This document shows positions 51,801-60,800 of a stretch of 64,000 nucleotides of DNA, in pieces. Each line of letters opens with the position of its first letter. Position 1 is the first letter of the stretch. The position numbers were made by a program. The stretch is from NCBI GenBank assembly GCA_965228875.1, contig OZ245843.1, forward strand, positions 4,198,616 to 4,262,615. Direction: 5' to 3'. Source of the stretch: Thalassobaculaceae bacterium. Its GTDB lineage: Bacteria; Pseudomonadota; Alphaproteobacteria; Thalassobaculales; Thalassobaculaceae.

Positions 51801-54800
51801 CGGCGCGCCGAACAGGGCGACGATGAAATACGAGGCGGAGGTCGGCAGGCCGAGGCCGAACACCAGGCAGGAGACGGCGACGACGATCGACAGGGTGAAG
51901 AGCGAGCCGTCCGACAGGTCGAGCATGAAGAACGACAGCTTCTGCGCGAAGCCGGTGACGGTCAGCAGTTCGATCAGCACGCCGATGACGGCGATCACCG
52001 TGGCGACGGCGGCGCCGGACCGCGTGCCTTCGACGAGGCCGTTGACCACCCGGGCGATGGCCTCGCGGAACGAGTCGAGGGAGAAGCGGCCCCGGGTCAC
52101 GGTGACCGCCATGTCGAGGCCGAGCAGGAGCAGTACCGAGATCAGCGCCGAGTTGCCCGCCGGAATGCCGCTGACCAGCAGCCAGATCAGCACGGCGATG
52201 GAGACCGCCAGATGCCATTGCCCCCTAGCGACCTGGCCGAGACTCGGCCCGCCTTCGAGCACGTCCGACTCGCGGGCGTCGAGATCCAGGTTCACGGCGC
52301 GGAGCTGCACCGAGAACATCAGATAGGCGTAGTAGATCAGCGCCGGCGCCAGGGCCGCGAGCATGATCGAATTGTAGGGCAGGCCGGTCATTCCGACGAT
52401 CAGGAAGGCGGCGAGGCCCATAACCGGGGGCATGAGCTGGCCGCCGGTCGAGGAGACGGCCTCGACGGCGCCGGCGAACTCGCCCCGGAAGCCGTAGCGC
52501 TTCATCAGCGGGATCGTCAGCGCGCCGGTGGAGGCGACGTTGGCGACGGTGGATCCCGAGACCGTACCCATCAGTCCGCTGGACACGACGGCCACCAGCG
52601 CCGGCCCGGCCCGGGACCTGCGGCCGATGGTGAAGCCGATCTGGACGATGAAGTCGATGGCGCCCGTCGCCTTCAGCGCGCCGCCGAACAGCATGAACAT
52701 GAAGATCGTGCCGGCGGACAGGCTGGTCAGGCCGCCGAGGAGGCCCTGGAAATACGGGATCGAGGTGTAGCCGAGCAGCCGCTGCGGGGCGATGCCGCCG
52801 TGGAAGAAGATCTCACCGGGCAGCAGATAGCCGTAGAGCCCGTAGGCGATGCCGATCAGCGCCATGGCGGGAATGGTCCAGCCCCATTGGAAGCCGGAGA
52901 GGATCAGCGCGGCCAGCAGCAGCAGGACCCCCACCGCCATGTCGGCGGCATTCGGCAGGAAGCTACGGACCTGGGTGAGCGCCTGATACTCGACATGGAT
53001 ATAGGCCATGAGGCCGATGGCGAGGGCCGCCAGCACCCAGAACGCCAGGCGTCGCAGCTTCTGCTCGGCACCGCTCTGCTCGATCAGGGCAAGGAAGCCG
53101 ATGACGATGGCGAAGCCGAGGTGGAAGTTCCGGAACTGGCCGGACGGCAGCGAGAACGTCGCCAGCTGCATCATGTGGATGCCGAGCATGATGAGCGCGG
53201 CCACGAGCAGGAGACCCGTGGCCGTGCGCGACCGTGTATCGGCGGCGCCGGCGATTTCCTCGAACCGCCGGCGCGTCTGGTCAGATTGTGTCAAAGCGTC
53301 CCCGTCGGGTCCGGTGTCAGCCGTGGATCTTGTACTGGTCGTCCCAGACGCCGATTTCCTTGAAGTACTTCGCCGCACCGGCATTGACCGGATAGGCCGG
53401 CATCAGGAACTCCATCGCGAACTCGGGGTTGATGTCCTTGAGCTTCACGCCGCCGCGCTTGCGCACGTACTCGGCGTTCTCGTAGATCGCCTTGGTGACG
53501 GTGTAGCCGACCTCCTCGGAGATATCCGGGCTGGCGGCCAGAACGCCGCCGAAGGACACCATGCGCGTCGGCTCCTTGAGGCTGGCCCAGGTGTCCGGCG
53601 AGACCATGGCGCTCTTCACGCCCGGGTTCATCTCCGCCGCCTTCGCCACCAGCTCCTCGCTGATCGGCAGGATCTTCAGCTCGTGGGTCGTCTCAAGGCG
53701 CTGCATGACGCCCGACGGATTGCCGGCGGTGAGCAGCGACGGAATGCAGTCCACCGCGCCGGAGGCGAGGGCGTCGTAGCTCTCGCTCCAGGAGCCGTAG
53801 GTCCACTCGACCTTGTCCTTGATCCCGGCGGCCTCGAACAGGGTGGTCCACAGGCCGGTGGTGGCGCCGCCGGCGGTCGCCGGCATCACCCGCTTGCCCA
53901 CCAGGTCCTCGATTGTCTCGATGCCGGAATCGGCCCGCACCATCGGCGTGCACTGCCAGACGGTGTAGGAGAACATCTGCACCGCGTTGACCGGCTTGCC
54001 TTCGTAGCGGCCGAGGCCGTTGATCGCCGGGTGCCAGTCGGTGGTGGTGGACTGCCCGAAATCGAGGATACCCTCGCCGATCAGGGCCATGTTCTCGGCG
54101 CCGCCCGCCGTCGACAGGGAGGCGTGCCGGCCGTCGGAGAACTTGGAGGCCGCGGCCGAGAGAACGGTGATGATCTGGTAGCCGGTCGAGCCGAGGCTGG
54201 ACGAGCCCCACTGGTAGATCTTCGCCGCCTGGGCGCCACCGCCCAGGAGCGGCGTCATCGCGGCCGCGCCGGCGGCGCCGCCGATCCCCTGGAGAAGCGA
54301 ACGTCTGGTCAGAACAGCCATAGAAACCCCCTGCTGCTGAGTGTGAGCGATCCGCCGTCCTCTGGCGGCCTTAGCGCGGAGGGTAGTTGTCGACCGGAGG
54401 GTGGGCAACCCAGAGAAAGCCTCACCGTATACAACGGCTGCGATTGCCCGGCGGACCGATGCGCGGCGACGGCTCGGATCGGCCTTCAGTAGGCCCAGAG
54501 CGCCGCGACGCTCTCGTCGGCGGCGGCAACCCGTTCGACCGGGTCGCGCTGCCGCAGCGCCGCGACCGGCACCGTGTCCTCGTCGCTGTCGTCGAGGGCC
54601 GGTTGATAGAAGCCGGTGAACCTGCGGCGCGCCGCCAGCCAGGCGTTGAGCTCGCGGGCGTCGGCCACGGCGACGGCGTCGAATCCGCTGCGTTGCAGGA
54701 ACAGGTAAAGATCGCGGATGACGTGGCCGGTGGCCCGGATCTCGCCGGGGAAGCCGTGCCGTTCGCGCAGCAGCCGGGCCTGGGAGAAGGCGCGGCCGTC

Positions 54801-57800: not shown

Positions 57801-60800
57801 GCCGATCAGCGCCACCGACCCGGTGGTCGGCGGCGACCGATCGTCGTTGATCGCGCGGAGCATCGCCTCGGCGGCGCCCGCCTCGTCGCCGGCCAGCACA
57901 CGGCGGGCGACGGGGCCGTCGAACACGCTCTCCCAGAACCGTCGCCGGCGGTCGCCGTTATCATGCGCGGCGGCGACAGCGCCGCGGAACCGGCCGGCGA
58001 AATCGGCGAGACGTCCGAGACGCGAGGGCAGCATCGCCTCGATCCGCTCACGCAGGCGCCGTACCAGAACCGGCGCCGCCCCGGCACTGCCGATGGCGAC
58101 GAGCAGTGGATCGCGGTCAACGATCCCGGGAACGATCACCGTCGACTGGGCCGGACGGTCGATCACGTTGACCGGAATGCCGGTCCGGCGGGCCGCGTCG
58201 AGCACGGGGTCCACAGGCTGGGTGCCGTCGTCGGAGACGACAACCAGGGCGGCACCGTCGAGGTCGCGCGGCTCGAACGTCCGGGCCTGGAGGTCCAGGA
58301 CGCCCTGGGTGGCGGCCGTGCGGATTTCCTCGACGGCTTCCGGGGCGATGACGAGCGGTCGGGCCTTGGCCTTCAGCAGCAGCCGGATCTTGCGGGCGGC
58401 CTCGTCGCCGCCGCCGATCACGACGCAGCGCCGTCCGTCCAGTTTCGCGAAGAGGGGAAAATATCTCACGGGCGATCTCCACTCGGTCCGGTCTCGGGCC
58501 CACGGGCTATCCCCGTGGCGCTTTAGCGCTTCGTGACGCGGTCGCAAGCTGCCCTTCAAATCACCGCGGCCCCGTCCCGGGGGCTGGGGCACGAATGCCC
58601 CGTCGACCAAAGGGTATTAAGATCGTTCCCGAATGCCTAGATGGAGGTCGTCAGAAAGAACGGGACGGTCCGAATGAGTCCTGATAGGAACAGAACCGTT
58701 CCCAAACATGCTGGAGCATGGAATGGATGATACAGACCGTCGGATCCTCCGGATCCTGCAGAAGGACTGCAGCGCGCCGGTATCGGAGGTGGCGCGCCAG
58801 GTCGGGCTGTCGGCCTCGCCCTGCTGGAAGCGGATCAACCGGCTGCAGGAGAGCGGCGTCATCCGCGAGCAGGTGGCGGTGCTGGAACCGGAGGCGCTGG
58901 GCTACGGGCTGACCGTGTTCATGTCGATCCGTACCGGTGAGCATTCCGGCGAGTGGCTTCGCGGATTCGCCGAATTCGTCAGCGCCATGCCGGAGGTCCA
59001 GGAGTTCCACCGCATGGCCGGCGAGATCGACTACATGCTCAAGGTCGTGGTCGCCGACATGAAAGCGTTCGACGCGTTCTACAAGCGTCTGGTCGACACC
59101 ACGCCGCTGGCCGAGGTGACCTCGCGGTTCTCCATGGAGACGATCAAGCAGACGACCGAACTGCCGGTCTGAACCGTTCAGCAGGCGCCCACGGCTTCGT
59201 CGTCGACCGCCGGCTGCTTGTCGTGTGCGGGCAGCCAGATCGACGCGACGGTGCCGCCCTTTGCGCCGCCCTCGATCGTGAGGCTCCCGTTCTGCTGTTC
59301 GATCAGGGACTTGGTGATCGCCAGCCCGAGTCCGGATCCGCCCGGGCCGTCAGACGTCAGAGGGTCGTCGCGACGCAGGAACGGTTCGCCGATCCGCTTG
59401 AGCACGGCGTCGGGGACCCCGTCTCCCTGATCCTCGATGGCGAAACGCACGCCGTCGTCGATCCGGACCGTCCGAACCGCGACCCGGCTCCCCGACGGCG
59501 AGAACTTCGCCGCGTTCGAGAGCAGGTTGAGCAGGCACTGAAGCGTCAGTCGGCGGTCGCAGAGCACCACGTCCGCGTTGTTCATCTCGGTCACGACCTC
59601 GATGTTTCTGCGCGAGAAGGCCGGTCCGGTCGTCGTCAGGGCTTCCTTGACCAGGGTCTCCGAGGGTACCGGCATGATGTCGATCTCGGCTTTGCCCGCC
59701 TGAATCTTCGACAGGTCGAGGATATCGTCGATCAGTTCCAGCAGGTGTTCGCCGCTCAGCTTGATATCGGAGACGTACTCCTGGGTCCGCTCCGGTCCCA
59801 GGCGCTCGATGCCCAGGGTCGTCAGCAACTCCGAAAAGCCGATGATCGCGTTGAGCGGCGTGCGCAGCTCGTGACTCATGTGCGCGAGGAACTGATCCTT
59901 GGCTTCGCTGTTGCGGTGGGCCTCCTCAAGAAGAAGCCGCAGTTGGTGGGAGAGGCGGACGAGTTCGTCCTTGGTCTTGACCGTGTCGGACATGTCGTGG
60001 GCGGTGGCCGTGACCATCGGTTTGCCGCCGACCAGATACCGGGCGAGCATGACCTGGGCCGGGAATGTCGTGCCGTCCTTGCGCTGCGCCTGCACGATCC
60101 GCAGGAAGGACATGGGGCCGGGGCTGGAATCCGGATCCTCGATGTAGTTCCGCGCCAGCTCGCCGTGGGAGCGGCGGGCGAAGTCCGGAACGAGGTTCTG
60201 GATGGACTTGCCGATGATCTCGTCCTTCTCCCATCCGAACAGCCGCACGGCCGCCTGGTTGAAGCTGGCGATCTTCTGATCCGCATCGACGGTGAGGATG
60301 GCGTCCGGTGCGGCGGAGAGGATCGCCTCGACCTCATCGCGATCCTGGGCGATGACCTGCCGCGCCGTAACCTGTTCGGTGACGTCTTCCTGGATGCCGA
60401 CGAAGTGGGTGATGCGGTCTTCACCGTCGCGGATCGGCGACAGGTTGAGCGTGAGCCAGAATGTCTCTCCGTTCTTGCGCCTGTTCCGCAGCGTCACGGT
60501 GCAGGGCTCACCGAGTCTGAGGGAGCGGCGGACGGTCTGGAGCTCGGGCTGATCCGGCAGGCCGCGGTTCAGGAGCCGACAGTTCGTGCCGAGGATTTCC
60601 TCCGGGGCGTAGCCCGTGATCTCGGTGAAGGCCTTGTTGACGTATACGACCGGATGGTCGTCCCGCGCTTCGGCGATGAGAACGCCGCAGACGGCGGAGT
60701 CCAACGCGGTACTGTTCAGTCGGATCTGGCCAAGCAGGTCCTCTTCGCGCGTCACGTCGATGTTCACGCCGATCATGTGGCGCGGCGCCCCGGTCTCGGC

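Follow-up and report, generated by a model that had tools for sequence, protein, structure and literature searches.

A SAM-II aptamer core with an inserted hairpin upstream of a sirohaem/sulfite reductase operon: a possible two-state latch over the ribosome-binding site

Most SAM-II riboswitches have been described as terminators or as elements that hide the Shine-Dalgarno (SD) sequence directly. The locus examined here raises the question of what an extra hairpin does when it is inserted between a SAM-II core and an SD at 58477-58480, some 40 nt further on, in a leader whose scan returned no terminator-like sites. The window, the whole 64,000-nucleotide stretch of a Thalassobaculaceae genome that was analysed, carries this arrangement in front of the genes cysG-DUF2849-cysI-DUF934, and the survey's finding had described it as a SAM-II element below the Rfam cut, 53 nt before that operon.

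This description was borne out by the match and by the nucleotides themselves. An Rfam search of the 2 kb around the element returned RF00521 SAM_alpha as the sole family, at 58503-58577 on the minus strand with 34.2 bits (E 1.8e-5), which does not reach the gathering score of 36 bits, and the cysG GTG start lies at 58469, 53 nt past the core. The P1 helix around GAUUU...UUGC, the P2b helix with its bulged U and the SAM-contact motifs UUU, UUGC and GC-U-AAA, whose roles in SAM-II and SAM-V are given in the accessible text of PMC3303485 and PMC6061858, can all be read (Table 1). The position 5' of methionine, SAM or sulfur genes is likewise that of SAM-II, and the accessible text on SAM_alpha (Corbino 2005, PMC1273637) agrees in P1 and pseudoknot core, in the GAUUU/UUGC/GCUAA motifs, in alphaproteobacterial hosts and in sulfur amino acid genes. 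Save for a variable L3 and flank positions, the core is unchanged among nine genus copies, and we read the element as a SAM-II core that would bind SAM. Two contigs from sequencing runs, which may be from the source sample, span the element with 0 differences.

Table 1. Features of the cysG leader and operon, in window positions
Feature	Position	Strand	Basis
DUF934, accessory protein of sulfite reduction	54486..55049	-	PF06073; bioRxiv 10.1101/072470 (accessible text)
cysI-type sulfite reductase haemoprotein	55030..56688	-	NIR_SIR domains
DUF2849	56692..57021	-	PF11011
cysG, sirohaem synthase with SAM-dependent methyltransferase domain	57036..58469	-	NF007922 567 bits, cut-off 400
GGAG SD-like sequence and cysG GTG start	58467..58480	-	GTG or ATG there in all 9 genus copies
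Distal strand GCCC	58496..58499	-	pairs with aptamer loop 58551-58554
Inserted hairpin, 7 bp	58500..58518	-	sequence; constrained folds of 9 genus copies
Proximal P2a strand	58518..58521	-	pairs with loop -1, -2, -4, -5; covariation counts
SAM-II aptamer core, complete	58522..58568	-	RF00521 34.2 bits and nucleotides read from sequence
GCUAAA	58522-58527	-	read from sequence
P1, 6 bp	58563-58568 with 58537-58542	-	read from sequence
UUGC	58544-58547	-	read from sequence
Purine-rich loop	58548-58557	-	part of aptamer core
GAUUU third strand	58558-58562	-	read from sequence
Conserved upstream block	58615..58670	-	kept in 9 genus leaders
Lrp/AsnC regulator, divergent	58708..59172	+	Pfam

The SD directly precedes cysG, which encodes a protein of 477 aa. 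The cysI-type protein reaches none of the NCBIfam equivalog cut-offs and is assigned because of its DUF2849/DUF934 context, as set out in the accessible text of bioRxiv 10.1101/072470, where DUF2849 is the proposed electron source for CysI.

The pairing between the aptamer loop and the distal strand, which had been reported to covary, was retested with searches that left the hairpin and most of the loop unfixed. Among these related copies, at least four Watson-Crick pairs occurred in 47 of 84 loop/tail combinations (20.9 in shuffles) and in 22 of 46 distinct loops (8.9 in shuffles), a level attained in 0/1000 shuffles in either case, so that the covariation was replicated. A proximal P2a is kept as well, since loop-4:tail4 is Watson-Crick in 73/73 subtype copies and loop-5:tail5 is Watson-Crick in 65 and G-U in 6 of the same 73, while loop-6:tail6 showed no constraint (31/73 Watson-Crick versus 36.9 expected). 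In terminator-type copies loop-5:tail5 covaries through all four Watson-Crick types (101/119 versus 49.6 expected), and covariation supports the P2a helix through these proximal pairs, 2 bp beyond the A bulge. In 50 of 50 copies tail base 5 could pair either with the loop or with the end of the hairpin, so the proximal P2a pairs compete with the base of the hairpin. In the window, the last base of the proximal strand (58518) also belongs to the inserted hairpin. A generic test for a hairpin of at least 5 bp after the core separates poorly (86/92 subtype versus 126/151 other copies), and from the access modelling onward the hairpin set was pattern-guided (71/92), the automatic picker having mis-called several tandem-type copies.

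The hairpin 3' arm together with the distal strand is complementary to the RBS of its own copy. This pairing amounts to -11.9 kcal/mol with the own RBS versus -10.2 kcal/mol with a swapped one (0/2000 shuffles), is stronger with the own RBS in 21 of 29 loop groups, and includes runs of at least six Watson-Crick pairs in 22 of 82 copies, versus 11.7. The distal strand carries an anti-SD sequence in many relatives, and a two-sided change preserves the anti-SD helix in copy L341 relative to L340. Within the genus, the 5' arm of the hairpin and its loop show complementarity to the region around the cysG start: constrained folds of nine copies join the 5' arm to the RBS/start by 9-11 pairs, and the unconstrained fold of the window leader has the same pairing; it is not general, being stronger in only 10/29 groups. 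In 55 of 67 copies, opening the RBS was costlier with the proximal pairs held than with the distal strand held, while 3 copies showed the reverse. The native access gain of 3.9 kcal/mol, against 1.6 for a slid window and 1.9 for swapped RBS, beat these controls only partly (in 12/17 and 9/13 loop groups, respectively).

An RBS-covering alternative fold exists in all nine genus cysG copies. For the window copy it reaches -26.8 versus -18.9 for the hairpin state, i.e. it is 7.9 kcal/mol more stable (approximately 4-11 kcal/mol across the genus), and the isolated 4-bp distal duplex contributes -5.9 to -8.7 before pseudoknot penalties, the pseudoknot being beyond what ViennaRNA can fold; the open state may therefore need kinetics or SAM itself. 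Shuffled sequences fold as well as the plain leader (z -0.55), and folding energy by itself therefore carries no weight as evidence.

The survey had counted the distal strand as part of an extended P2 of the aptamer, a placement that is not supported in that form: because the proximal P2a is kept, tail base 5 is shared and anti-RBS sequences are present, the inserted hairpin together with the distal strand is better read as an expression platform acting on translation, outside the SAM-bound aptamer. On balance, we favor a SAM-II element with a strand-exchange platform, through which high SAM would switch off cysG and, via coupling or polarity, the operon as well; both the orientation of the switch and its consequence for the downstream genes are predictions of this model. 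Without SAM, the purine-rich loop would grip the distal strand with the inserted hairpin closed, locking the anti-RBS sequences until SAM binds and leaving the ribosome able to bind, so that distal pairing would mark the ligand-free, open state. SAM would then dock the GAUUU(G) third strand and set the short proximal P2a, whose formation would take loop bases and the bottom pair of the hairpin and free the distal strand, upon which the leader could rearrange so as to cover the SD and the start codon. In this view the extra hairpin resembles a latch on the RBS with two states.

The inverse logic, in which SAM stabilizes the extended pseudoknot, with hairpin and distal strand joined in a three-way junction, and thereby sequesters the anti-RBS and switches translation on, would have SAM-consuming CysG made only when SAM is available, and if the distal helix belonged to the bound state the subtype would be a SAM-II ON switch, of which no description was found. 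It would agree with the RBS-covering fold as the more stable default in all nine genus copies, with the covarying distal pairing, and, in the accessible texts, with P2 being needed for SAM binding in A. tumefaciens RNA (PMC1273637) and P2a often having 5 bp in SAM-II (PMC6061858). The geometry of the bound fold cuts both ways. In the SAM-V structure, as given in the accessible text of PMC6061858, the base after UUU lies in the third strand and a 3-nt turn follows; for the window's loop type all 4 distal pairs fit the bound fold and leave a 3-nt linker, but once the first three loop bases are excluded, at most two distal pairs remain in 6 of 23 loop/distal types, whose helices would nearly vanish, and with the proximal pairs also formed at most three remain in 23/23. 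We consider this reading unlikely, as an ON switch would be paradoxical on metZ and metY, which carry the same platform directly in copies L057, L200 and L317, and equally so in those copies whose leader already carries a terminator-type SAM-II ahead of them (G000 and relatives). Catabolic methionine gamma-lyases among the metZ targets would have favored ON logic; this identity was rejected, the best match of the L057 target being O-succinylhomoserine sulfhydrylase (494 versus 310 bits).

The hairpin and distal strand could also simply lie within the SAM-bound aptamer, with repression through Rho, through mRNA decay or, as at S. meliloti metA, through a ribosome standby site, and with the anti-RBS matches secondary. 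Such a reading would account for the covarying distal pairs and the lack of an intrinsic terminator at the window locus, and the accessible text of PMC9373788 has the S. meliloti metA SAM-II acting from afar and affecting how stable the mRNA is; we nevertheless judge it improbable, since the complementarity to each copy's own RBS is significant and compensated, and tail base 5 is used by both loop and hairpin. That the element is degenerate or answers another ligand, with the Lrp protein regulating, is highly improbable despite the score below the Rfam cut and the conservation of both the divergent Lrp gene and the block upstream, given that the core is invariant in nine genus copies, that sister copies exceed the cut (L133, before cysG, with 38.1 bits and L073 with 38.2 bits), and that a separate copy precedes cysH, located elsewhere, in 5/8 genus genomes.

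Regarding distribution, the element precedes cysG in 8/8 large genus genomes, as the survey's finding had it for the genus, and has no match in two genus genomes of 1.5 Mb (8/10 overall). The subtype is real and its hairpin conserved, but "widespread" overstates its reach: among 401 genomes of the class the strict P1 pattern matched 11, one of them being the genome studied here, and of the 22 cysG-linked copies 21 belong to the same family as the window. Genes behind the copies mostly serve sulfur or methionine supply (cysG, cysH, metZ, metY, metN and metQ, the last two as metNQ), with cysG 22 times and cysH 12 times among 126 copies, which supports the proposed link of SAM feedback to sulfite and sulfate reduction. 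A U-run follows 10/102 subtype versus 107/151 other copies, and copy L204 is of direct-occlusion type with the same P1/L3. Sister copies score 24-38 bits against SAM_alpha and only two exceed the cut; many copies would therefore escape an automated reconstruction of regulons. The above-cut metY copy of this genome was considered as the same variant and rejected, its downstream match lying within a terminator loop and not being kept in relatives.

Feedback by SAM on genes for sulfate assimilation and sirohaem as such has a precedent in the SAM-I (S-box) element on the Bacillus subtilis cysH operon, which is said to have been reported by Mansilla in 2000. That system differs in its unrelated aptamer, its transcription termination and its Firmicutes host; for SAM-II, the literature searched held no earlier case of sulfur assimilation under SAM control, which would carry the feedback of this class to the step where inorganic sulfur enters. 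The SAM-II targets in the accessible text of PMC4239095 are metY, metA, metX, metXW and hom-metXC, whereas here cysG and cysH are included. Compared with canonical SAM-II, the terminator is absent, and a short proximal P2a, an inserted hairpin and a distal strand separate the core from the SD. Translational control and a short ligand-dependent P2a are shared with metX SAM-II and SAM-V (accessible text of PMC6061858 and PMC10907184), in which the SD lies within P2a; in the window copy it does not, and it would be covered indirectly by an anti-RBS freed from a competing helix. The 44 tandem SAM-II cases of PMC9481103 include some in which the first element has a terminator and the second apparently controls the RBS, like G000 and relatives, and the structure of the second platform and cys targets were not found in its accessible text. 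SAM-II long loops RF01726 is also a SAM-II variant with inserts, but AU-rich and from Bacteroidetes and marine sequences, and its model gave no match at the window element (E up to 1) or among sister copies. The latch wiring over the RBS was not found in print, in a comparison that did not reach the 2005 Corbino alignment, and the subtype offers a testable third SAM-II wiring with many natural compensatory variants.

In relatives, a Cys-rich leader peptide occurs in 29 of 51 short-ORF copies versus 5/102 other frames, none before cysG; in the window copy no short Cys-rich ORF follows the SD, which leads straight into cysG. NCBIfam held no family for 18/18 leader peptides examined. By eye and without a control, minimum free energy folds of these copies often pair the Cys codons downstream and place a GC hairpin before the next start. 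The same folds showed no obvious U-tract, again by eye and without a control. Tentatively, and with slightly less than even confidence, we propose that the copies form a SAM-II subclass of their own, built on a modular platform for strand exchange in which the aptamer loop would mimic the SD and retain an anti-RBS for as long as SAM is unbound; this subclass would run an alphaproteobacterial sulfur regulon (cysG, cysH, metZ, metY, metNQ) and gate Cys-rich leader translation in Microvirga, Methylobacterium, Bosea, Reyranella and relatives, as a two-input gate for SAM and Cys-tRNA. In these relatives a SAM sensor and a cysteine attenuator appear to be layered one upon the other, an arrangement that, if so, would explain RNA-level integration of both ends of the sulfur pathway. 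Cys-codon leaders are known from polycysteine attenuators (accessible text of 10.1101/834739 and PMC1262725), and riboswitch control of uORF translation from M. tuberculosis (accessible text of PMC11260477 and PMC12810186); an alphaproteobacterial SAM-II combined with a Cys leader was not found in the literature searched.

Upstream of the element, the conserved block is likely promoter plus operator, although a sigma-70 consensus scan of the leader region gave 0 sites. The divergent Lrp/AsnC regulator probably provides a second, transcriptional input; such a gene lies upstream in 16/22 cysG-linked copies, and the closest solved chain to the window's regulator is 3i4p.

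The survey's finding of a SAM-II variant before cysG was confirmed in its position, SAM_alpha being the single Rfam match in 57500-59500 (34.2 bits, with the cut at 36; E 1.8e-5). Although the element falls short on Rfam score, it passes on structure and, judged by its sequence, is read as a real SAM-II riboswitch. Four SAM_alpha matches were obtained in this genome, one of them above the cut, and 8 of 14 control genomes gave matches at E up to 1, with none above the cut.

Features of the riboswitch, its operon and further loci of the genome (window positions unless marked as contig)
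Feature	Position	Strand	Remark
SAM_alpha match	58503-58577	minus	
Core: 6-bp P1, GAUUU, purine-rich loop, UUGC, GCUAAA	58522-58568	minus	read from sequence
7-bp hairpin	58500-58518	minus	after core
GCCC distal strand	58496-58499	minus	after hairpin
GGAG, then cysG GTG start	58469	minus	53 nt after core
Operon genes: cysG, DUF2849, NIR/SIR protein, DUF934			Lrp/AsnC gene divergent
Genus-conserved block between lrp and riboswitch	58615-58670		contains GAAC/GTTC half-sites; putative promoter and Lrp operator
ahcY (SAH hydrolase)	62061-63356	minus	3.5 kb away from riboswitch
Second cysG	about 18680-20103	minus	contig 4217291-4218718; 38% identical
Tandem SAM-II (L003, L004)	G000:C1:1217235-1217450 (contig)		terminator-type, then hairpin-type copy

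In a profile search the reductase stayed below every NCBIfam equivalog cut-off, and it is read as CysI because DUF2849 and DUF934 accompany the NIR/SIR protein; in other bacteria, 10.1101/072470 describes both as cofit with sulfate assimilation. A CysH query at E 1e-5 reached the PAPS_reduct locus alone, the only such match in this genome (L369), which from sequence and context reads as CysD; with CysH thus not found here, the operon's step in this genome would be sulfite reduction. Elsewhere in the genus, cysH lies at another place with its own riboswitch copy in five of eight relatives. Next to the second cysG lie ORFs that look like genes of nitrate/nitrite assimilation, and the SAM_alpha search of the genome gave no SAM-II match there.

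Across related genomes, 29 of 41 held a SAM_alpha match, including 8 of 10 in the genus, where the two lacking one are the 1.5-Mb genomes; the element had been claimed before cysG in 8 of 8 genus loci, and all eight matching genomes do carry the riboswitch copy before cysG. The nine aligned genus copies do not vary in core, hairpin arms or distal strand. The new searches left the hairpin unfixed, to avoid the bias of the earlier hairpin-fixing pattern, and yielded at least 119 stretches from GTDB and at least 121 from metagenomes, with matches in 11 of 401 class genomes and a family sample of 63 genomes also searched; GCUAA lay downstream in 55 of the 132 pattern matches listed for the metagenome and class-genome loci. 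The pooled set holds at least 253 distinct cores, at least 102 with the P1 of the subtype, and a U-run follows the core in 10 of 102 subtype-P1 copies versus 107 of 151 others among the matches listed. The first downstream gene, called by tblastn with 14 query proteins in 126 distinct subtype copies among the matches listed (family loci added), was cysG in 22, cysH in 12, a small unnamed ORF in 11, GcvT/DmdA-like in 10, metN and metY in seven each, rhodanese and metZ in five each, DUF2061 in three, metQ in two and YeiH in one, with no query match in 41. The cysG-linked copies listed come in 21 of 22 cases from the window's own family (L133 being counted there, as its core is identical to that of G441), and 16 of the 22 have an lrp gene upstream. 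One subtype copy (L096) precedes a HEAT-repeat protein in a record titled Coriobacteriia and, if the bin is right, lies outside Alphaproteobacteria. Beta- and gammaproteobacterial records contain many compact SAM-II cores that are linked to a terminator and have a P2a of 2 bp (L069-L187).

The claimed distal pairing, of aptamer loop with distal strand, was replicated by these searches: among the matches listed, four or more Watson-Crick pairs form in 47 of 84 loop/tail combinations (20.9 shuffled) and, counted by distinct loop, in 22 of 46 (8.9 shuffled), values reached in 0 of 1000 shuffles in either case, although these shuffle counts are not probabilities because the copies are related. Compensated changes are clear in L075, L133, L298 and L318, and L341 shows a loop change without compensation on either side. 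The subtype has the canonical proximal P2a register as well. Among the matches listed, all 73 subtype copies have a Watson-Crick pair at loop-4:tail4 (four T-A), loop-5:tail5 is Watson-Crick in 65 and G-U in six, and loop-6:tail6 is unconstrained (31 of 73 Watson-Crick); outside the subtype, loop-5:tail5 shows covariation across all four types (101 of 119, 49.6 expected). In all 50 copies listed, the loop and the hairpin end are each complementary to tail base 5, with 47 of the 50 sharing one triplet, and in 17 the hairpin could claim tail base 4 as well; since tail base 5 is common to both pairings, the proximal helix competes with the closed hairpin and distal helix. Ten copies (L196, L204, L206, L232, L238, L240, L274, L280, L281, L292) have G for the third A after GCUAA, with C as first loop base in seven; in SAM-V that A touches the amino-acid end of SAM, and a changed affinity or ligand may therefore result in these copies.

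Pairing of the hairpin's 3' half plus distal strand with the copy's own RBS has an energy of -11.9 kcal/mol in 66 copies among the matches listed, whereas shuffled partners give -10.2; 0 of 2000 shuffles were as strong, and in 21 of 29 loop groups the own RBS paired more strongly. For the distal strand by itself the values were -6.6 and -5.7 (17 of 29), and own-RBS runs of at least six pairs occurred in 22 of 82 copies versus 11.7, again among those listed. Pairing of the hairpin 5' arm with the RBS was not general in this set (59 of 2000 shuffles, 10 of 29 loop groups); in genus cysG copies with the proximal strand held, nine of nine folds put 9-11 5'-arm pairs on the SD/start region. The modelled mean cost of RBS opening was 10.1 kcal/mol proximal-held versus 6.7 distal-held, opening being costlier in the proximal-held state in 55 and cheaper in three of 67 copies, namely those with an SD-led start among 71 pattern-defined hairpins out of 92 listed. 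Controls shrink this effect (native difference 3.9, slid block 1.6, swapped RBS regions 1.9), and native exceeded the two controls in 38 of 46 and 40 of 51 when counted by copy listed, but in no more than 9 of 13 and 12 of 17 when counted by loop group. The RBS-open state predicted by this modelling is the one with the distal strand paired and the hairpin closed.

We infer SAM binding, switch direction and operon-wide effect alike, and the most likely mode, held with moderate confidence, is a translational OFF switch by strand exchange, in which SAM frees the distal strand and the leader covers the RBS. OFF is favoured by targets that are mostly supply genes, with metZ and metY directly behind the SD in some copies, by subtype copies that form the second element of a tandem after a terminator-type SAM-II, and by proximal pairs common to both kinds. 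A further argument for OFF comes from SAM-V, where the base after UUU lies in the third strand and is followed by a 3-nt turn (available text of PMC6061858). Excluding the first three loop bases leaves at most two distal pairs in 6 of 23 loop/distal types listed, and at most three in 23 of 23 once the proximal pairs form. The opposite direction, with SAM stabilising the extended pseudoknot and turning translation ON, draws on an RBS-covering fold that in the window copy is more stable than the hairpin state by 7.9 kcal/mol (genus range about 4-11), on an isolated distal duplex worth -5.9 to -8.7 before pseudoknot costs and on the loop type of the window copy, which could retain all four distal pairs when bound; set against the targets and tandems, it appears unlikely. 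Repression by another route is doubtful and ranks behind it, and an element that is non-functional or serves another ligand is improbable. The hairpin-type copy of the L003/L004 tandem has a 7-bp distal helix with an anti-SD strand, and a GcvT-family gene downstream; for a relative's copy the best score was that of a DMSP demethylase-like protein, at 361 bits with a truncated query and a cut-off of 410.

In the available texts, SAM-II is described with P1, P2 and usually terminators (Corbino 2005, PMC1273637), SAM_alpha targets are metY, metA, metXW and hom-metXC, with none tabulated for Rhodospirillales (Leyn 2014, PMC4239095), 44 tandem SAM-II cases include some whose second aptamer apparently controls the RBS (PMC9481103), and S. 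meliloti metA shows unusual translational control (PMC9373788). No such insert or cys target appears in the accessible portions of PMC2258182, PMC2864571, PMC3326309, PMC3303485, PMC10907184, PMC12452182, PMC12667848 and PMC13285730. A literature search covering few subscription papers found none on this platform, on SAM-II before cysG/cysH or on SAM-II with a Cys leader. Since some copies exceed the Rfam cut, a SAM riboswitch before cysG is probably already annotated in databases; the novelty is a variant of SAM-II, the class itself being known. In B. subtilis, SAM-I controls the cysH operon.

Mycobacteria are known to have polycysteine attenuators as well as riboswitch-gated uORFs (available parts of 10.1101/834739, PMC1262725, PMC11260477, PMC12810186). 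The combination of Cys leader and SAM-II is here a feature of relatives, the window copy having no leader peptide. Among the matches listed, an ORF of at most 45 aa at an SD-led start occurs in 51 of 84 hairpin copies, and 29 of these 51 carry at least two Cys in the last 12 residues, versus 5 of 102 other frames. The Cys-leader ORFs (L073, L083, L087, L088, L102, L107, L109, L193, L206, L248, L260, L277, L292, L320 and others) are SD-led, 11-32 aa long, with Cys runs at the end, and lie directly after the SAM-II hairpin, followed by metQ, metN or an unnamed small ORF; carriers named in record titles include Microvirga, Methylobacterium, Bosea and Reyranella, and none of the 18 leader peptides tested had an NCBIfam family. 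By eye, some 60-120 nt separate leader stop and next gene start, often with a GC hairpin before the start and no obvious U-tract in between. A Cys attenuator gated by the riboswitch is likely in these copies, as far as their sequence tells, and a wider reading would make the hairpin type a possible SAM-II subclass of its own, with such a Cys-leader gate in the relatives. Behind the leader there is repeatedly a small ORF, about 70-125 aa in length (L081, L087, L088, L097, L125, L193, L232, L242, L315), eight of nine having no Pfam family and the L087 frame running into a solute-binding protein; the L193 ORF had no NCBIfam family. Short non-Cys ORFs (16-25 aa) precede cysG in 12 copies listed from other genera of the family (L026, L036, L133, L337, L351, L354-L356, L358, L360, L363, L366), and their place between riboswitch and cysG suggests translational coupling.
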